Assembly (NCBI RefSeq): GCF_002854065.1
Contig: NZ_CP024147.1
Source of the DNA: Escherichia coli
GTDB taxonomy: Bacteria; Pseudomonadota; Gammaproteobacteria; Enterobacterales; Enterobacteriaceae
Length of the DNA stretch: 64,000 nt
Strand: one strand, 5' to 3'
The notes under the pieces were generated by a model. It saw only the letters and a program-made list of their open reading frames with translations, made no database searches and was not told the DNA's origin. The translations under genes and the position numbers were made by a program. Of this stretch, positions 11,842 to 61,521 are shown one piece after another (positions within the stretch are counted from its first letter, which is position 1; every line of letters starts with the position of its first letter).

Positions 11842-13944
11842 ATGTTTGCCAAATTCATAGATGTTATTCAAACGTTTTTAACTGAACCGGCAATTTTAAT
11901 TGGTTTGCTGGTGGGTATTGGTTATGCCCTTGATAAGAAATCGCCAATAAAAATTATTACCGGCATGGTCAGCGCCATGGTGGGATTAATGATGGTGTTA
12001 TTTGGTGGTTTCCAGTTTTCCGCAACATTTAAACCGGTAGCAGAAGCCGGGTGATGCTGCCAACTTACTGATTTAGTGTATGATGGTGTTTTTGAGGTGC
12101 TCCAGTGGCTTCTGTTTCTATCAGCTGTCCCTCCTGTTCAGCTACTGACGGGGTGGTGCGTAACGGCAAAAGCACTGCCGGACATCAGCGCTATCTCTGC
12201 TCTCACTGCCGTAAAACATGGCAACTGCAGTTCACTTACACCGCTTCTCAACCCGGTACGCACCAGAAAATCATTGATATGGCCATGAATGGCGTTGGAT
12301 GCCGGGCAACCGCCCGCATTATGGGCGTTGGCCTCAACACGATTTTCCGCCATTTAAAAAACTCAGGCCGCAGTCGGTAACCTCGCGCATACAGCCGGGC
12401 AGTGACGTCATCGTCTGCGCGGAAATGGACGAACAGTGGGGATACGTCGGGGCTAAATCGCGCCAGCGCTGGCTGTTTTACGCGTATGACAGGCTCCGGA
12501 AGACGGTTGTTGCGCACGTATTCGGTGAACGCACTATGGCGACGCTGGGGCGTCTTATGAGCCTGCTGTCACCCTTTGACGTGGTGATATGGATGACGGA
12601 TGGCTGGCCGCTGTATGAATCCCGCCTGAAGGGAAAGCTGCACGTAATCAGCAAGCGATATACGCAGCGAATTGAGCGGCATAACCTGAATCTGAGGCAG
12701 CACCTGGCACGGCTGGGACGGAAGTCGCTGTCGTTCTCAAAATCGGTGGAGCTGCATGACAAAGTCATCGGGCATTATCTGAACATAAAACACTATCAAT
12801 AAGTTGGAGTCATTACCCAGAAGCCGTAAGTAAAGCCTATGGTGTTCACGGATATTTAATGGATTCCTACGCAATGAAAGCGGCAACGCAAATTGCATTG
12901 GGGGATAATTTTGGTTATGTCGGGTATGTATTTGTACTGGCGTTTTTTACCAACCTGCTGCTGGTATTATTTGGTCGGTATACTGGTGCCAAAGGGATAT
13001 TTTTGACAGGGAATACCGGTGTTTCACATTCTCAGGCGGTATTATGGTTGATTGTCTTTTGGCTGGGTTTTAGCTGGACTACATCCATTATTATTGCCGG
13101 AATATTAACGGGTGTATTCTGGGCGTTCTTCACCACGCTCATTGTTAAGCCCATTGCCAAAGTTACCAAAGATGCCGGTTTTACCATTGCTCATAACCAG
13201 ATGTTGGGATTGTGGTTTTTCTCCAAATTCGCCCATAAATTTGGTGACCCTGAAAAGCACGATGCTGAAAACCTGAAACTTCCCGGGTGGCTGGCGATTT
13301 TTAACCATAACGTAACGGCTATCGCCATTGTGATGACGCTGTTTGTCGGTGGTTTCTTGCTATCAACGGGTATCGATAATGTCCAGTTAATGGCGAAAGG
13401 CAAGCCCTGGTACATCTATATCATCAACCTTGGCTTACAGTTCTCCATGTATATGGTCATTCTGCTGCAGGGTGTGCGCATGATGGTGGGCGAAATTAAC
13501 GGTTCGTTTAAAGGCTGGCAAGATCGCTTTATTCCTAACGCTATTCCTGCTGTCGATGTTGCAGCGCTGTTACCTTTTTCACCCAATGCCACAACGTTAG
13601 GCTTCGTCTTCTGTACTTTTGGCACCATTTTTTCGATGGGGATCTTATTACTGGTTCACAGCCCAATTATGGTATTGCCTGGCTTTGTACCTCTGTTTTT
13701 CTCTGGCGGTCCAATTGGCGTATTAGCAAACCGCATGGGCGGATACCGTTCCGTAATTATCTGTACGTTCTTGCTGGGTATTATTCAGACCTTTGGTACG
13801 GTGTGGGCTATTCCGTTAACCGGGCTTGCTGAAAATGGCGTCGGCTGGACAGGAATATTTGACTGGGCAACCGTATGGCCTGCTATTTGTGAAGTTCTGA
13901 AATTTATCGCTGCAACATTCCATCTTGGTCCTTACGCGGGTTAA
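11842..13944 (+). pseudogene. PTS ascorbate-family (UlaA/SgaT-like) EIIC, split by an IS1 insertion
   Basis: ORFs 11824..12054 and 12859..13944 both resemble UlaA; removing IS1 plus one TSD copy (777 bp) restores one in-frame ORF of about 441 aa; start codon 11842 vs 11824 uncertain. Confidence 0.8.
12050..12817 (+). mobile_element. insAB: IS1 copy 1 (768 bp) with 9-bp target-site duplication CAGAAGCCG
   Basis: Terminal inverted repeats ggtgatgctgccaacttactgat / ...aagttggagtcattacc; insA 12105..12380 and insB 12299..12802; identical 9 bp at 12041..12049 and 12818..12826. Confidence 0.95.
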
Positions 13945-14297: not shown

Positions 14298-16556
14298 ATG
14301 AGAGCGATTATTCTGCTGTTCGATAGTCTGAATAAACGGGTAATGACTCCAACTTATTGATAGTGTTTTATGTTCAGATAATGCCCGATGACTTTGTCAT
14401 GCAGCTCCACCGATTTTGAGAACGACAGCGACTTCCGTCCCAGCCGTGCCAGGTGCTGCCTCAGATTCAGGTTATGCCGCTCAATTCGCTGCGTATATCG
14501 CTTGCTGATTACGTGCAGCTTTCCCTTCAGGCGGGATTCATACAGCGGCCAGCCATCCGTCATCCATATCACCACGTCAAAGGGTGACAGCAGGCTCATA
14601 AGACGCCCCAGCGTCGCCATAGTGCGTTCACCGAATACGTGCGCAACAACCGTCTTCCGGAGCCTGTCATACGCGTAAAACAGCCAGCGCTGGCGCGATT
14701 TAGCCCCGACGTATCCCCACTGTTCGTCCATTTCCGCGCAGACGATGACGTCACTGCCCGGCTGTATGCGCGAGGTTACCGACTGCGGCCTGAGTTTTTT
14801 AAATGGCGGAAAATCGTGTTGAGGCCAACGCCCATAATGCGGGCGGTTGCCCGGCATCCAACGCCATTCATGGCCATATCAATGATTTTCTGGTGCGTAC
14901 CGGGTTGAGAAGCGGTGTAAGTGAACTGCAGTTGCCATGTTTTACGGCAGTGAGAGCAGAGATAGCGCTGATGTCCGGCAGTGCTTTTGCCGTTACGCAC
15001 CACCCCGTCAGTAGCTGAACAGGAGGGACAGCTGATAGAAACAGAAGCCACTGGAGCACCTCAAAAACACCATCATACACTAAATCAGTAAGTTGGCAGC
15101 ATCACCGAATAAACGTTATCTGCCACCTTATGGCGATGCGTTAACCAAAGCGCCTAATTTCCAACGTCTGGCGGCTCATGCCGCCACCTTTGAAAACAGT
15201 TACGTCGGCAGTATGCCGTGTATGCCTGCCCGGCGGGAGTTGCATACCGGGCGATGTAACTTCCTGCATCGGGAGTGGGGGCCGTTAGAACCGTTTGACG
15301 ATTCCATGCCGGAGCTGCTTAAAAAGGCGGGGATCTATACCCACCTGATAAGCGATCATTTGCATTACTGGGAAGATGGCGGCGGGAATTATCATAATCG
15401 CTACAGTTCGTGGGAGATTGTGCGCGGACAGAAAGGCGATCACTGGCATGCAAGCGTTGCGCAACCGCCTATTCCCGAGGTGCTACGGGTGCCGCAAAAG
15501 CAGACCGGTGGCGGTGTTTCTGGTCTGTGGCGCCATGACTGGGCAAACCGGGAATATATTCAGCAGGAAGCGGATTTTCCACAAACTAAAGTGTTTGATG
15601 CAGGCTGTGCCTTTATCCACAAAAATCACGCGGAAGATAACTGGTTATTGCAGGTCGAAACGTTTGATCCGCACGAGCCGTTTCACACAACGGAAGAGTA
15701 TCTTTCCTTGTATGAAGATAACTGGGATGGACCGCATTATGACTGGCCGCGTGGCCGGGTGCAGGAAAGCGACGAGGCCGTGGAGCACATCCGTTGCCGG
15801 TATCGTTCGCTGGTGTCGATGTGCGATCGCAACCTGGGGCGCATTCTCGACCTGATGGATGAGCACGATCTGTGGCGAGATACCATGCTGATTGTCGGCA
15901 CTGACCACGGCTTTTTACTCGGTGAGCATGGCTGGTGGGCGAAAAACCAGATGCCTTATTACAACGAAGTTGCCAATAATCCGTTGTTTATCTGGGACCC
16001 GCGCAGTGGTGTAAAAGGAGAGCGGCGACAGGCACTGGTACAAATGATCGACTGGGCGCCAACGTTGTATGACTTTTTTCAACAGCCAGTGCCGCCCGAT
16101 GTGCAGGGGCAACCGCTGGCGAAAACGGTCAGTCACGATGAACCAGTACGCAGCTCGGCGATGTTTGGTGTCTTCAGTGGTCATGTTAACGTAACTGATG
16201 GGCGTTTTGTCTATATGCGTGCAGCGCTGCCGGGGCGTGAGGATGATATTGCCAACTACACGTTGATGTCCTGCAAAATGAACAGCCGCTATCCGGTGGA
16301 TGAGATGCGGGCTTTATCGCTGGCCCCACCGTTTCGTTTTACCAAAGGGTTACAGGTATTACGCATCCCGGCACAGGAAAAATATAAGGGGTTGAATCAG
16401 TTTGGTCATTTGCTGTTTGAGCTGCAAAACGATCCGCAGCAGCTACATCCGATTCATGATGATGTGATCGAGTCCCGGATGATCGCGTTGCTGATTCAGT
16501 TGATGAAAGATAATGATGCGCCGCCAGAGCAGTTTCAGCGCCTGGGATTAGCGTAG
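14298..16556 (+). pseudogene. Cys-type (formylglycine-dependent) sulfatase, split near its 5' end by an IS1 insertion
   Basis: ATG at 14298 encodes MRAIILLFDSLNKR, then IS1, then the ORF resumes in frame (YLPPYGDA...); sulfatase signature C-M-P-A-R-x4-T-G present; no signal peptide. Confidence 0.8.
14339..15106 (-). mobile_element. insAB: IS1 copy 2 (768 bp, reverse orientation) with 9-bp target-site duplication GAATAAACG
   Basis: insB 14354..14857 and insA 14776..15051 on the minus strand; identical 9 bp at 14330..14338 and 15107..15115. Confidence 0.95.
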
Positions 16557-17511: not shown

Positions 17512-17655
<144 letters not shown>

Positions 17656-21268: not shown

Positions 21269-21891
21269 AATCATTTCCTTATTAGCTTGCTGTCTGCGTC
21301 ACACTACGACCAAACGCTATCAGATTATTTAATACATTGTTTTTAATACAATTCTGAAACAATCTGAACACCTGATTGGGTTTGAGTCCATTGCTGGCTA
21401 CCCACTCAAGGTTGCTCGTAGCTGACTTACTTAAATTACCCAAACAATAGACAGTGTAAACCATTTGTGAGGTTGAGCGTGTTATATGGCTGAAATGATC
21501 ATTTAAGGTAAATATGATAGTTCTGAAATGGTGGTATAAATCCTCCTGTAGAGGTTAAGAGCATCTGCAAGAAGCCAGTTTCACATTTATAACGCGTGAT
21601 AAATGAACGCGGTTATTGTCTAATCATTACAAATTTTTCACATGCGATAAGAGATCCTGCTATTAAGATGATTGCCAAAATTACGTTGTATTTTTGAAAA
21701 TGAGCGAAATTTGATAGTCCCAGCTTTGACTTTTGATAATATTATTTATGTTACAGTTGTGGGTATAAAATATAATCTTTTTGAACAAGTGAATTTGAGC
21801 GAAGAATAAATCAAGTTGTTTCAGTGTTTCGTTAATTAATATGAGTATAAAAGGTGTTGTGCTTTTACAATAATAAAGCGCGAGGAGTTCG

Positions 21892-22661
21892 GTGGATTAT
21901 CGTTTTTCTTGGGTGATTTTTAATATGATAAACAATATATCTGATCAAGCGTCATCATTTCCATGCACACAATTGAATCAAAGTGATAATTTCCTCGATT
22001 CACTGAGGGAATTTTTCGCGATATTAAATTCCAGTCGTAAGGGTGAGTTGTCTACATGGGATACCATCTACTTGCATCTGATATTAGCAATAAATGCTGA
22101 CAGTGATCTCATAAAAAATGATGTGTTGCTCGCGGAAAATATTCCAACAGCGGATTATCAATTTAATACATTTTTAGTAATGCTTTCGAGACTGATGTTA
22201 AAAAATATCTGGGTAAATCAGAAGATAACGAAGTTGAAATAAAAACGGGTAATGAAAGAATCTCTATTGGAATACGTAACATATCGAATGGAAAACTTGA
22301 AAGACAAAAGTTTCTTTTCCCACTGGACTATGAGAATAAATTACAACATCAATTAGACAAGCATTTTACGATTGAATCGCACCCATTATTATACAGGCAT
22401 ACTATGGGTAGTAAGATTGCGAATGTGATTTTTGAAAAATTATACAGTCGTATTGACTTTAACAAAGAACAATATATATCCTTTATAAAGGACGCGTTTC
22501 TTCATTTTTATGATTATAGCAGGCGATATGCAATTAATGAGAATATTGCAAAAGACGCTGTAACAAACAATATCGCATTGATGAGCACTTTTTATGACAG
22601 TGATAATACGTCAGGTGAGGTTTTAAATAATGATTTTACAGAAGAGTCATTTGAAACTGCG
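21892..22661 (+). pseudogene. 5' fragment of an AT-rich gene of unknown function: frameshifted, then truncated by IS1
   Basis: ORF 21892..22242 (frame 1) overlaps an open frame-0 segment 22167..22661 that runs into the IS1 end; possible GTG start with a gaggag Shine-Dalgarno. Confidence 0.4.
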
Positions 22662-23429
22662 GGTGATGCTGCCAACTTACTGATTTAGTGTATGATGGTG
22701 TTTTTGAGGTGCTCCAGTGGCTTCTGTTTCTATCAGCTGTCCCTCCTGTTCAGCTACTGACGGGGTGGTGCGTAACGGCAAAAGCACTGCCGGACATCAG
22801 CGCTATCTCTGCTCTCACTGCCGTAAAACATGGCAACTGCAGTTCACTTACACCGCTTCTCAACCCGGTACGCACCAGAAAATCATTGATATGGCCATGA
22901 ATGGCGTTGGATGCCGGGCAACCGCCCGCATTATGGGCGTTGGCCTCAACACGATTTTCCGCCATTTAAAAAACTCAGGCCGCAGTCGGTAACCTCGCGC
23001 ATACAGCCGGGCAGTGACGTCATCGTCTGCGCGGAAATGGACGAACAGTGGGGATACGTCGGGGCTAAATCGCGCCAGCGCTGGCTGTTTTACGCGTATG
23101 ACAGGCTCCGGAAGACGGTTGTTGCGCACGTATTCGGTGAACGCACTATGGCGACGCTGGGGCGTCTTATGAGCCTGCTGTCACCCTTTGACGTGGTGAT
23201 ATGGATGACGGATGGCTGGCCGCTGTATGAATCCCGCCTGAAGGGAAAGCTGTACGTAATCAGCAAGCGATATACGCAGCGAATTGAGCGGCATAACCTG
23301 AATCTGAGGCAGCACCTGGCACGGCTGGGACGGAAGTCGCTGTCGTTCTCAAAATCGGTGGAGCTGCATGACAAAGTCATCGGGCATTATCTGAACATAA
23401 AACACTATCAATAAGTTGGAGTCATTACC
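22662..23429 (+). mobile_element. insAB: IS1 copy 3 (768 bp) without a target-site duplication
   Basis: Flanks are gaaactgcg (left) and agtaatctc (right); insA 22717..22992, insB 22911..23414; insB has an H-to-Y change relative to copies 1 and 2. Confidence 0.95.
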
Positions 23430-24092
23430 AGTAATCTCTATTTATCACACACTGTTGTGAATGAAAGTATATTGAAGAAATGTTGTTTTGAAAACGGCAG
23501 TTTAGGTGATGTTAAAATAACAAATAGCAATATAATAAATAATGTATTCAAAAATATTTCGTTTAGATCTGTTAAAATTAACAACGTAAATACTCATTCT
23601 TTAAAATTTATTAACTGCAATTTTTTCAATGTTGATATGATAAGAGTTAATTTCAGTAAATGTCTTTTTCATGACTGTAGTATGCATGGTGTCAAGATAA
23701 AACCATAGTTGCCAGTAAAATGGACAAAAGAGTTAATAAATGATTATTTGTATGGCTGTTTACTCTCTCTGTACTCTATCTGTGCAAGAGATATATATAA
23801 TATGATCGCCGGGAATAACGTGAAGGTTGCTGCGGATGCTTTCCTTGAAATACTTTATTCTCTTAAAAATAAATATTGTATTAAACTATTAAGCGCTCAG
23901 GATCGGGCGTTTATATACGAATTTGCAAGAATGATCTTCGCTTATATTAATGACAAAAGCATTGAGATCTTATTACTTTCTTGTTTTGCGGCGGCTGACC
24001 AAAAAGCAATCCAGCGGTATATACCTCAGGCGCAAGATGGGGAAGACTTTAGGAATCATTTACAATATAAGTTGACTCTTCCCACTCATTAA
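23430..24092 (+). pseudogene. 3' fragment of the same or an adjacent AT-rich gene: pentapeptide-repeat-like region with an in-frame amber stop at 23706..23708
   Basis: Frame 0 is open from the IS1 boundary; ORFs 23457..23708 and 23709..24092 are in the same frame separated only by TAG; repeat-like stretch NVFKNISFRSVKINNVNTHSLKFINCNFFNVDMIRVNF. Confidence 0.4.
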
Positions 24093-33667: not shown

Positions 33668-34567
33668 TTACGCAGAGAAAAAGGCGATGAGGATCGGCAC
33701 TAACAGGCTAAGAATAAAACCGTGAACAATTGCCGCCGGGACCATATCCAGCCCGCCAGTACGTTGAAGAACGGGCAGGGTGAAATCCATCGACGTCGCA
33801 CCGCATAAGCCCAGTGCGGTAGAGCGGCTGCGGCGAATCAGCCCAGGGATCAACATAATTGCAATCAGCTCACGGGCCAGATCATTAAAAAACGCCGCGC
33901 TCCCGATTACCGGACCAAAAGATTCGGTCAATAAAATACCGGAAAGAGAATACCAGCCGAAACCAGAGGCCATTGCCAGCGCGGTATTGATGGGTAGATC
34001 AAGAATAAAGGCGTTAATTAAACCACCAATTAATGAACTGGCAACCACCACCACGGCGACAATCATTCCCCGGCGATTAAGGACAATCTGCTTTAAGGTC
34101 ATGCCATTATTGCGCAACTGAATACCGACGAGGAAAAGTAGCAGAATTAACGTGTATTCACTGGCTTCGGTCGCGTGTTGTAAGAAAGCCAGTCCACTCA
34201 GGCCAATGGCAAAACCAATCACTACTACGCCGCACAGTTTTAGCGACTCAAGCGCCATCGCAATACGCGACGGGAGTTTTTCTTGCTGATGGTGGTTGCG
34301 CCACGGCAGACCGCGCTCCAGCCATATAAGGGCGGCAATATTACACAGTAAAATAACGGTAATACTGACGGCAGAATAATGCAGAATCGCCAACAGGTTA
34401 CTGGCGAGGTTATCGAGAAACGCCAGACTGATACCCATAAAAAAGAGAATAAGGTAAACCATCCAGCTTAATAGCTGATTAATAACTTTTAACGCAGCTT
34501 GTTGGCGAAGCGGAATGAGGTAACCCACAATCAGGGGAACCAGAATGATTAACAGCCCAGAAAACAT
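33668..34567 (-). CDS. ybjE: Inner membrane protein YbjE / lysine exporter LysO (299 aa)
   Basis: Multi-pass membrane ORF; synteny. Confidence 0.85.
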   Translation of the reverse strand: MFSGLLIILVPLIVGYLIPLRQQAALKVINQLLSWMVYLILFFMGISLAFLDNLASNLLAILHYSAVSITVILLCNIAALIWLERGLPWRNHHQQEKLPSRIAMALESLKLCGVVVIGFAIGLSGLAFLQHATEASEYTLILLLFLVGIQLRNNGMTLKQIVLNRRGMIVAVVVVASSLIGGLINAFILDLPINTALAMASGFGWYSLSGILLTESFGPVIGSAAFFNDLARELIAIMLIPGLIRRSRSTALGLCGATSMDFTLPVLQRTGGLDMVPAAIVHGFILSLLVPILIAFFSA

Positions 34568-35024
34568 GAAAACCCAGCCCTTGCAAAGAAAGAAGTCGAA
34601 ATGCGCGATGACACACTACTGAAAGCGGAAGGACGAGTAAAGTTGCAATTAAAAGGAAATGTTATGCATCAGAGGGGGATTTTTAATTCTATATGAGTGT
34701 TTAGCATTGTTGCGCTCCTTTCATGTGCAATGCCATATAAAGCCACTGGCGCAGGGAGCGCGCAGGGGGCGGCCAGTCGCCGCCGCCCCCTGCACCCCCG
34801 GGCTCTGGCGAACAAAATCGCCGCTGCGCGGTACCTTCAGCTTATCCCCTTCGGCTACCGGGTCGGGCGCGAGGTAACGTCCTGTAAGACGCGCCCTCAG
34901 CCCACATCCATGTGGGCTGCCCCGGCCTTCAGGGAACGCCTCGGCGATTTTGACGCCACCAACATCCGTGCGGTTTGTAACGTCGAAGATAAAACAACCA
35001 GGGCAGATAAAATGCCAATGCTAA

Positions 35025-36497
35025 TTAATTACGTTTTTCCAGCAGGGTCCGGTAAATCAGACCACCGATAATGCCGCCGACAATTGGCACCACCCAGAAG
35101 AACCACAGTTGTTCTAATGCCCAGCCGCCCTGGAAGATGGCAACCGCGGTGCTGCGCGCCGGGTTAACAGAAGTGTTAGTCACCGGAATACTGATTAAGT
35201 GAATCAGGGTTAAGGCCAGACCAATAGCGATCGGCGCAAAACCTGCCGGAGCGAATTTGTCGGTTGCGCCGTGGATCACCAACAGGAAACCTGCACTCAA
35301 TACCAGTTCAACTACCAGCGCGGAAAGCATGGAATAACCGCCTGGTGAATGCTCGCCATAACCGTTAGGGTGATGCTGCCAACTTACTGATTTAGTGTAT
35401 GATGGTGTTTTTGAGGTGCTCCAGTGGCTTCTGTTTCTATCAGCTGTCCCTCCTGTTCAGCTACTGACGGGGTGGTGCGTAACGGCAAAAGCACTGCCGG
35501 ACATCAGCGCTATCTCTGCTCTCACTGCCGTAAAACATGGCAACTGCAGTTCACTTACACCGCTTCTCAACCCGGTACGCACCAGAAAATCATTGATATG
35601 GCCATGAATGGCGTTGGATGCCGGGCAACCGCCCGCATTATGGGCGTTGGCCTCAACACGATTTTCCGCCATTTAAAAAACTCAGGCCGCAGTCGGTAAC
35701 CTCGCGCATACAGCCGGGCAGTGACGTCATCGTCTGCGCGGAAATGGACGAACAGTGGGGATACGTCGGGGCTAAATCGAGCCAGCGCTGGCTGTTTTAC
35801 GCGTATGACAGGCTCCGGAAGACGGTTGTTGCGCACGTATTCGGTGAACGCACTATGGCGACGCTGGGGCGTCTTATGAGCCTGCTGTCACCCTTTGACG
35901 TGGTGATATGGATGACGGATGGCTGGCCGCTGTATGAATCCCGCCTGAAGGGAAAGCTGCACGTAATCAGCAAGCGATATACGCAGCGAATTGAGCGGCA
36001 TAACCTGAATCTGAGGCAGCACCTGGCACGGCTGGGACGGAAGTCGCTGTCGTTCTCAAAATCGGTGGAGCTGCATGACAAAGTCATCGGGCATTATCTG
36101 AACATAAAACACTATCAATAAGTTGGAGTCATTACCAACCGTTAGAAGCAAAACCGCTGGCTGCCGCGTCAAAACCCGTTTTACCACTGGCAATTAAATA
36201 CAGCAGCGCCGCTGCAACAATACCGCCGACAACCTGGGCAATTACGTAGCCAACGACTTCTTTTGCCGGAAAACGTCCGCCAGCCCATAAACCAATAGTG
36301 ACCGCCGGGTTAAAATGACCACCAGAAATATGACCAACAGCGAAGGCCATCGTCAGAACGGTCAAACCGAATGCCAGCGCCACGCCGGCAAAACCAATGC
36401 CTAATTCCGGGAAGCCTGCGGCCAGTACAGCACTACCACAGCCACCAAAAACAAGCCAGAAAGTACCAAAACATTCAGCTGCTAATTTTCTGAACAT
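35025..36497 (-). pseudogene. aqpZ: Aquaporin Z, interrupted by an IS1 insertion
   Basis: N-terminal part 36137..36497 ([13 protein letters not shown]... with NPA) and C-terminal part 35025..35368 (...second NPA...RTLLEKRN) on the minus strand, separated by IS1. Confidence 0.9.
35369..36136 (+). mobile_element. insAB: IS1 copy 4 (768 bp) with 9-bp target-site duplication AACCGTTAG
   Basis: Identical 9 bp at 35360..35368 and 36137..36145; insA 35424..35699, insB 35618..36121 with an R-to-S change. Confidence 0.95.
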
Positions 36498-36922
36498 ATC
36501 CACCTCAATTAAAAATTGACCCTGTGAAAAATATGGTCGTTTTATAGGGTCGTCGTAAAAAAGTGACGACGGAAATAATGCGCGGCTATTTTAAAAACGA
36601 AGGCGAGTCATTCACCAGATAAATAAATCCAGTAAATTTGATTTAGGGCAACAGCGGGTTGCCCCATATAGTCATTTGTCTGATTGACAGTGTAGTGCAA
36701 GCAAAAGATTTAATCCTTTAGGCGTAATAAAAAATAATTTATCATGCTAATTATTTGATTTTGTTGTTTTTGCAGACTTATCAGCAAGAGGGAGTATAAC
36801 GCGATTATTCGCTCATTTTTCAGACATTTGCCATGCTTAAATGTGATGTCATCACGTATTAGCAAGGCCTTTCCCGTTATACTGCCAGCGTAAAGGATAA
36901 GTCACATATTTCTGGAGGGGAT

Positions 36923-38581
36923 ATGATTCTTGAGCGCGTTGAAATTGTGGGTTTTCGCGGTATCAACCGTTTGTCGTTGATGCTGGAACAAAACAACGTC
37001 CTGATTGGGGAGAACGCGTGGGGTAAATCCAGCTTGCTGGACGCCTTAACCCTGCTGCTATCGCCAGAATCAGATCTCTACCATTTTGAGCGCGACGATT
37101 TCTGGTTCCCGCCGGGAGATATCAACGGGCGAGAACATCATCTGCATATTATTTTGACCTTCCGCGAATCGCTGCCAGGCCGACATCGGGTACGCCGTTA
37201 TCGGCCGCTGGAAGCGTGCTGGACGCCATGCACCGATGGCTATCACCGTATTTTTTATCGTCTGGAAGGGGAGAGTGCGGAAGACGGCAGCGTGATGACA
37301 CTGCGCAGTTTTCTCGATAAAGACGGACATCCGATTGATGTTGAGGATATTAACGATCAGGCACGCCATCTGGTGCGTTTAATGCCGGTGCTGCGCTTGC
37401 GTGATGCCCGTTTTATGCGCCGTATTCGTAACGGCACGGTGCCAAATGTCCCCAATGTGGAAGTCACCGCGCGCCAGCTCGATTTCCTCGCCCGTGAGTT
37501 GTCCTCACATCCGCAAAATCTCTCTGATGGACAGATTCGTCAGGGACTTTCCGCAATGGTACAGCTGCTTGAGCATTATTTCTCTGAGCAGGGGGCCGGA
37601 CAGGCGCGATATCGTTTAATGCGGCGGCGAGCCAGCAATGAGCAACGAAGCTGGCGCTATCTGGATATCATCAACCGGATGATTGACCGACCTGGAGGGC
37701 GCTCGTATCGGGTTATTTTGCTCGGCCTGTTTGCTACTTTATTGCAGGCAAAAGGCACATTGCGACTGGATAAAGACGCCCGTCCATTGTTGCTGATCGA
37801 AGATCCAGAAACCCGTTTACACCCCATTATGCTTTCAGTTGCCTGGCATCTGTTGAATCTTTTGCCTTTACAACGTATTGCTACCACCAACTCTGGCGAG
37901 CTGCTTTCGTTAACTCCAGTGGAACATGTTTGCCGCCTGGTGCGTGAATCTTCTCGTGTTGCCGCCTGGCGTCTGGGGCCAAGTGGCTTGAGCACCGAAG
38001 ACAGCCGCCGCATCTCTTTTCACATTCGTTTTAATCGTCCGTCATCGCTGTTTGCTCGCTGCTGGTTGCTGGTGGAAGGGGAAACGGAAACCTGGGTTAT
38101 CAATGAACTGGCGCGTCAGTGCGGACATCATTTTGATGCCGAAGGGATCAAGGTCATTGAGTTTGCCCAGTCCGGGCTAAAGCCACTGGTTAAATTTGCC
38201 CGGCGAATGGGGATTGAATGGCATGTACTGGTCGATGGCGATGAAGCAGGGAAGAAATATGCCGCTACGGTACGCAGCCTGTTGAATAATGATCGGGAAG
38301 CCGAACGAGAACATTTAACGGCGTTACCGGCGCTGGATATGGAACATTTTATGTATCGCCAGGGATTTTCCGATGTGTTCCACCGCGTGGCGCAAATCCC
38401 GGAAAATGTACCGATGAATCTGCGCAAAATTATCTCGAAAGCGATCCATCGCTCTTCCAAACCCGATCTTGCCATTGAAGTGGCAATGGAGGCCGGACGT
38501 CGTGGTGTGGACTCCGTACCGACGCTGCTGAAAAAAATGTTCTCACGCGTGCTGTGGCTGGCGCGCGGTCGCGCGGATTAA
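36923..38581 (+). CDS. ybjD: OLD-family protein YbjD: N-terminal ABC-type ATPase plus C-terminal Toprim domain (552 aa)
   Basis: Walker A GENAWGKSS, Walker B-like LLLIEDPETRLHP, Toprim motifs LVEGETE and VLVDGDEAG. Confidence 0.85.
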   Translation: MILERVEIVGFRGINRLSLMLEQNNVLIGENAWGKSSLLDALTLLLSPESDLYHFERDDFWFPPGDINGREHHLHIILTFRESLPGRHRVRRYRPLEACWTPCTDGYHRIFYRLEGESAEDGSVMTLRSFLDKDGHPIDVEDINDQARHLVRLMPVLRLRDARFMRRIRNGTVPNVPNVEVTARQLDFLARELSSHPQNLSDGQIRQGLSAMVQLLEHYFSEQGAGQARYRLMRRRASNEQRSWRYLDIINRMIDRPGGRSYRVILLGLFATLLQAKGTLRLDKDARPLLLIEDPETRLHPIMLSVAWHLLNLLPLQRIATTNSGELLSLTPVEHVCRLVRESSRVAAWRLGPSGLSTEDSRRISFHIRFNRPSSLFARCWLLVEGETETWVINELARQCGHHFDAEGIKVIEFAQSGLKPLVKFARRMGIEWHVLVDGDEAGKKYAATVRSLLNNDREAEREHLTALPALDMEHFMYRQGFSDVFHRVAQIPENVPMNLRKIISKAIHRSSKPDLAIEVAMEAGRRGVDSVPTLLKKMFSRVLWLARGRAD

Positions 38582-46202: not shown

Positions 46203-46290
46203 ATTCACTGCCGTACAGGCAGCTTAGAAAGTCAACCGAAAGAAAAACTCGATTTTTATACCGTTCACTGCTGTACAGGTAGATAAAATG
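46203..46290 (+). CRISPR. Orphan type I-F-like CRISPR remnant: two 28-bp repeats flanking one 32-bp spacer
   Basis: Repeat 1 attcactgccgtacaggcagcttagaaa (27/28 to the I-F consensus GTTCACTGCCGTACAGGCAGCTTAGAAA); spacer gtcaaccgaaagaaaaactcgatttttatacc; repeat 2 is degenerate (7 mismatches); no cas genes in the window. Confidence 0.7.
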
Positions 46291-61283: not shown

Positions 61284-61307
61284 TACCCAATTTTTCTGAA
61301 TCTAAAA

Positions 61308-61329
61308 AGCGCCTGCGGGCGCTTTTTTT
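61308..61329 (+). terminator. serS intrinsic terminator
   Basis: Stem agcgcc / ggcgct with loop tgcg, followed by T7. Confidence 0.7.
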
Positions 61330-61521
61330 GTCTCCCTTTGATACCGAACAATAATTACTCCTCACTTACACGTAATACTACTTTCGAGTGAAAATCTACC
61401 TATCTCTTTGATTTTCAAATTATTCGATGTATACAAGCCTATATAGCGAACTGCTATAGAAATAATTACACAATACGGTTTGTTACTGGAATCAATCGTG
61501 AGCAAGCTTGAGTGAGCCATT

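Follow-up and report, generated by a model that had tools for sequence, protein, structure and literature searches.

Interruption of the aquaporin gene aqpZ by a complete IS1 element in an IS1-rich Escherichia coli lineage

The split aqpZ gene and its IS1 element

The window analyzed here is a 64,000-nucleotide stretch of Escherichia coli contig NZ_CP024147.1 (RefSeq assembly GCF_002854065.1), in which aqpZ lies between lysO and ybjD, the arrangement that is usual for E. coli (Table 1). There is no uninterrupted aqpZ reading frame in the window and the gene is a pseudogene here. Its 5' and 3' fragments are separated by a complete IS1 element, and the interval 35025-36497 given in the initial annotation corresponds to the exact outer limits of the split gene. 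Codons 1 to 120, which end in ASNG, run from the ATG at 36497 to position 36138 on the minus strand and are followed by a single Trp codon and then by two stops, the first of which is located inside the right end of IS1. The stub encoded by this frame holds the first NPA half of the channel only, and exactly the same 121-amino-acid stub is already on record in public assemblies.

Table 1. Positions of the aqpZ fragments, the IS1 element and neighboring genes, with the inverted IS1 pair found elsewhere in the window and the corresponding loci of E. coli CUWW06
Feature	Position or locus tag	Strand	Remarks
lysO (ybjE)	33668..34567	-	intact; downstream of aqpZ
aqpZ 3' fragment	35025..35368	-	codons 121-231 and stop; includes left 9-bp copy
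Target-site duplication, left copy	35360..35368		9 bp, AACCGTTAG
IS1, complete	35369..36136	+	768 bp; inverted repeats and 9-bp duplication
IS1 inverted repeats	35369-35391 and 36114-36136		18/23 positions identical
insA	35424..35699	+	91 codons, GTG start; Pfam Zn_ribbon_InsA, HTH_Tnp_IS1
InsAB' transposase	35424..36121	+	232 aa; predicted -1 frameshift at A6C
aqpZ 5' fragment, open frame	36132..36497	-	121 aa; 120 native codons, one Trp codon and stop
Target-site duplication, right copy	36137..36145		9 bp, AACCGTTAG
ybjD	36923..38581	+	intact, 552 aa; OLD-family ATP-dependent endonuclease
IS1 copies in inverted orientation	12050-12817 (+), 14339-15106 (-)		own 9-bp duplications CAGAAGCCG and GAATAAACG
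aqpZ::IS1 features of CUWW06	ACNHKQ_RS08530, RS08535, RS08540		PGAP annotation

When IS1 and one of the two duplicates were deleted in silico, an unbroken AqpZ of 231 amino acids was obtained, whose two NPA motifs lie at residues 63 and 186. The restored protein is an exact match to the sequence with the UniRef name AQPZ_ECO57 and aligns to the Pfam MIP family with E = 1.5e-51, as expected of an aquaporin Z. Therefore, the proposal that a clean insertion of IS1, its duplication intact, inactivated aqpZ is borne out by the element length, by the perfect 9-bp repeat and by recovery of the frame upon removal of the element. As IS1 separates the homologous halves of the channel, the two NPA loops no longer occur together in either fragment. 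E. coli possesses one orthodox aquaporin, AqpZ, and one aquaglyceroporin, GlpF, and the view that the insertion removed the only orthodox aquaporin agrees with this established knowledge.

The interrupting element has the length, the ends, the A6C frameshift, the three protein domains and the 9-bp target duplication of the IS1 family. It resembles the IS1A/IS1B-type elements of E. coli and Shigella in its 768 bp and in its imperfect 23-bp ends, the left inverted repeat reading GGTGATGCTGCCAACTTACTGAT and the right, as its reverse complement, GGTAATGACTCCAACTTATTGAT. As in the family at large, a -1 frameshift links the insA and insB' frames; the A6C motif at which it takes place, TTAAAAAACTC, begins at 35673. 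The predicted InsAB' product matches Zn_ribbon_InsA, HTH_Tnp_IS1 and DDE_Tnp_IS1 in Pfam with E-values of 1.4e-19, 6.3e-28 and 3.6e-77, respectively, all above the cut-offs. Both frames and both ends are intact. The copy does differ from its relatives by one private missense change, an A at 35780 that converts Arg120 to Ser in InsAB', 10 residues past the EMDEQW motif; this position is a C in all other IS1 copies of the window, as well as in the same insertion in CUWW06 and in an NCTC strain, both of which are described below.

The spacer between lysO and aqpZ holds an unannotated GC-rich element of ~250 bp (34735-34995). Copies of this element number 1-8 per E. coli genome (median 3), with one located, for example, between putP and efeU. 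On the minus strand it gives a sub-threshold match to the Rfam TwoAYGGAY RNA (28 bits versus a gathering score of 43), and it contains a hairpin with the loop AUGGAU.

The same allele in other assemblies

IS1 is a multi-copy repeat that is prone to misassembly, and the split gene could conceivably be an assembly artefact in which an IS1 copy was misplaced into aqpZ. However, the boundaries of the element are precise and the 9-bp duplication is exact, a match that would be expected by chance on both sides of IS1 with a probability of only ~4e-6. Furthermore, identical left and right junctions are found in two independent long assemblies, namely the complete genome of the wastewater isolate E. 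coli CUWW06 from Thailand (RefSeq NZ_CP182139.1) and a 4.74-Mb contig of NCTC assembly GCA_900449015.1. Four other independent contigs, three from draft assemblies and one from an ENA metagenome, contain the right junction and run into IS1 or end within it, as expected of a repeat. Given that independent assemblies share the same junctions, the insertion is not an artefact of one assembly, and we regard misassembly as extremely improbable.

CUWW06 carries IS1 at the same site and in the same orientation as the window, with the same target duplication. A 21.9-kb stretch to the right of IS1 matches the window at 100.0% as reported, and within 34600-36900 only two positions differ, 34965 and 35780. 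The NCTC strain differs from the window at the same two positions and additionally by one 1-bp indel. Judged by these sequence comparisons, the window is a third member of the CUWW06/NCTC lineage. PGAP annotates two partial aquaporin pseudogenes in CUWW06 around an IS1-like element IS1B family transposase, with the counterpart of 35025..35368 described as an aquaporin that is incomplete and missing its N-terminus. The identical aqpZ::IS1 allele is therefore already known, since a public RefSeq record lists it as a pseudogene. In the literature searched, CUWW06 is named in a single paper, which deals with Tn3-derived elements, and strain 1-250-04 nowhere.

CUWW06 is the closest complete genome and has a single place for aqpZ, consistent with loss of the only orthodox aquaporin; a second intact copy, which would speak against that loss, is absent there. 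At least 32 other complete E. coli genomes hold an intact allele with 100% DNA identity to the restored aqpZ of 696 bp. No decay has therefore accumulated in the two fragments, indicating that the insertion is recent.

IS1 in and around aqpZ across E. coli

Matches to aqpZ were found in 5,423 of 5,426 complete E. coli genomes, and at least 80% of the gene is covered in 5,382 of the 5,426. An 80-bp probe that spans the empty target site, with its single 9-bp copy, is intact in 5,386 complete genomes and, among the matches listed, is split in CUWW06 only. Nevertheless, IS1 has entered aqpZ at other positions. In JKHS006 (hospital wastewater) and FXCREC145 (human urine) the frame is likewise interrupted by IS1 and annotated by PGAP as two partial aquaporin pseudogenes. 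The fragments measure 291/432 nt in JKHS006 and 456/249 nt in FXCREC145, compared to 342/363 nt in the window, and the IS1 subtypes differ as well. Because both the insertion positions and the subtypes differ, the three alleles represent independent events. Four sister genomes of FXCREC145 show the same pattern as that strain in the hit table, and the dog isolate Z0117EC0013 has, judged by the hit table, a feature pattern like that of JKHS006, for which the annotation itself was read.

Insertions are also found in the spacer between aqpZ and ybjD, which is AT-rich at 37% GC; several lineages carry IS1 here, including AHB3, UTME-9 and 64EVA, and the K-12 derivative NCM3722 appears to have IS1 in ybjD itself. 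Counting both orientations, IS1 is present in the 1.5-kb aqpZ region of ~35 of the 5,426 genomes. Assuming about a dozen IS1 copies per genome (median 13 matching places) distributed uniformly over 5 Mb, a rough chance expectation is ~20 genomes. Since the observed and expected numbers are of the same order, no hot spot need be invoked.

It had also been suggested that the insertion places outward-reading IS1 sequence next to the ybjD promoter region. The direction is correct, in that the transposase frame of the element points at ybjD, but the proximity is overstated, as 786 bp separate the right end of IS1 from the ybjD ATG and a scan of the plus strand of this interval detected no sigma-70-like promoter site. 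One could imagine that read-through from IS1, or a hybrid promoter formed at its end, alters ybjD expression and that selection acts on this effect. The orientation of the transposase frame would fit such a regulatory insertion, as would the finding of no terminator-like site on the plus strand from 36137 to 36922 and the occurrence of IS1 in the aqpZ-ybjD spacer of several other lineages. Against it, in addition to the distance and the result of the promoter scan, inspection shows no TATAAT-like hexamer at a distance of 16-18 nt past the TTGGAG of the right inverted repeat, where GAAGCA, AAGCAA and AGCAAA are located. Moreover, IS1 is found at the locus in both orientations, in 23 genomes one way and in 10-12 the other, the latter recovered by a control query in which IS1 was reverse-complemented, and nothing in this distribution suggests selection for read-through. 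We infer that IS1 has no effect on ybjD, and the chance that selection on ybjD accounts for the allele appears very slim. The bias of IS1 orientation towards ybjD that was seen before the control query proved to be an ascertainment artefact, as the search had joined same-strand pieces only.

Selection and the origin of the allele

The initial annotation linked the loss of AqpZ to relaxed selection in a host-restricted lifestyle. In a broader form of this idea, aqpZ would have been lost by relaxed or reversed selection in a host-restricted, Shigella-like lineage. The genome is indeed IS1-rich, with four copies in the 64 kb of the window and at least 40 IS1 pieces in CUWW06, but such a load is common, as 502 records have at least 40 pieces. 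In order to look for enteroinvasive strains, we took an ipaB query from pCP301 and searched the 5,426 complete E. coli genomes; nine of these match and CUWW06 is not among them. CUWW06, which carries the same insertion and is a wastewater isolate, is thus neither enteroinvasive E. coli nor Shigella, and membership in an enteroinvasive or Shigella-like lineage is rejected for this closest complete relative. Additionally, ordinary E. coli from hospital wastewater and from urine carry aqpZ::IS1 alleles of independent origin. Where the first 50 kb of the window align to CUWW06, the aquaporin halves are the sole flagged pseudogenes in the annotation of that genome. The locus resembles the IS-driven gene decay of Shigella in that an expanded IS1 population interrupts chromosomal genes, and S. 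sonnei seems to be broken in aqpZ as well, but it departs from that pattern in that CUWW06 lacks ipaB and, over the aligned 50 kb, has no further annotated pseudogene. The claim of host restriction is not supported by these comparisons, and we consider it improbable.

A point in favor of host restriction comes from S. sonnei itself, in which 3' fragments of aqpZ start at contig ends near nt 400 in ~1,990 blocks of the collection. Such a pattern suggests that a repeat element inserted independently near nt 400 and may be fixed in S. sonnei, together with an associated rearrangement, and the apparent break is compatible with repeated loss of aqpZ in host-adapted lineages. In some S. sonnei assemblies the 3' fragment continues into dusC-yohJK-cdd and not into lysO-hcp. 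A literature search on aqpZ pseudogenes in Shigella found nothing relevant.

A different adaptive explanation is that loss of AqpZ is repeatedly favored in some niche, such that the aqpZ::IS1 allele is adaptive and not neutral. The complete genomes for which annotation was read include at least three independent insertions of IS1 within aqpZ, a finding compatible with this possibility, and the further probable hits and the apparently fixed break in S. sonnei are compatible with it as well, set against retention of the gene in ~99% of genomes. Conservation of aqpZ in nearly all E. coli (5,382/5,426) points to purifying selection in nature, and some cost or benefit of its loss may therefore exist. 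On the other hand, an AqpZ-minus strain loses water after hyperosmotic shock as fast as wild type, and the sole difference observed is in stationary-phase cell volume (PMC3325977). Given that the laboratory phenotype is near-absent, the allele is probably close to neutral, and we think it unlikely that selection in a particular niche drove its spread.

Taken together, we consider it very probable that a complete IS1 transposed into aqpZ in the ancestor of an IS1-rich E. coli lineage, that AqpZ was lost as a consequence, and that the insertion is a recent and nearly neutral event. In this scenario, the target was codon 118-121 of aqpZ in the founder of a small lineage, where the insertion duplicated 9 bp and separated the halves of the channel. 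The 5' fragment can now yield nothing but the stub with its one NPA motif, the 3' half lacks its promoter and start codon, and no functional AqpZ channel is made. The four IS1 copies in the window are at most two positions apart from one another, the copy in aqpZ differing by 1 nt from two of the others and by 2 nt from the third. Two of the copies, at 12050 and 14339, are absent from CUWW06 and are therefore younger than the split from that strain, indicating that IS1 expansion is ongoing. The aqpZ insertion is most likely a side effect of this expansion, close to neutral, and not an adaptation. Its significance is accordingly very small, being one more IS1 knockout of a dispensable gene. Nevertheless, the aqpZ::IS1 junction can serve as a lineage marker for the CUWW06/NCTC clade, and the strains provide a natural aqpZ-null background for revisiting the role of AqpZ.

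Between the inverted IS1 copies at 12050 and 14339 lie 1.5 kb of a PTS IIC/IIB-sulfatase cluster, and the two copies together form a composite-transposon-like arrangement. CUWW06 lacks both copies and has intact PTS IIC and sulfatase genes, and the disruption of these genes in the window is therefore very recent. The fourth IS1 copy (22662-23429) is located in an AT-rich island between ybjP and ybjQ (21602-24074), where it interrupts a frame-broken ORF that, by eye, resembles a pentapeptide-repeat protein. This copy has no target duplication, being flanked by GAAACTGCG on the left and AGTAATCTC on the right. CUWW06 has the same IS1 but lacks 1,060 bp and 645 bp flanking it, which suggests IS1-adjacent deletions.

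Rfam searches identified three further features in the window. A solitary CRISPR-DR4 repeat (47 bits) is located at 46203-46230 (+) between clpA and tRNA-Ser, which is the place of the type I-F (CRISPR3/4) remnant in E. coli. Two matches exceeded the gathering score, for naRNA4, a REP-derived nucleoid-associated RNA, at 17516-17596 (+) and for the sRNA STnc130 at 61297-61431 (-).
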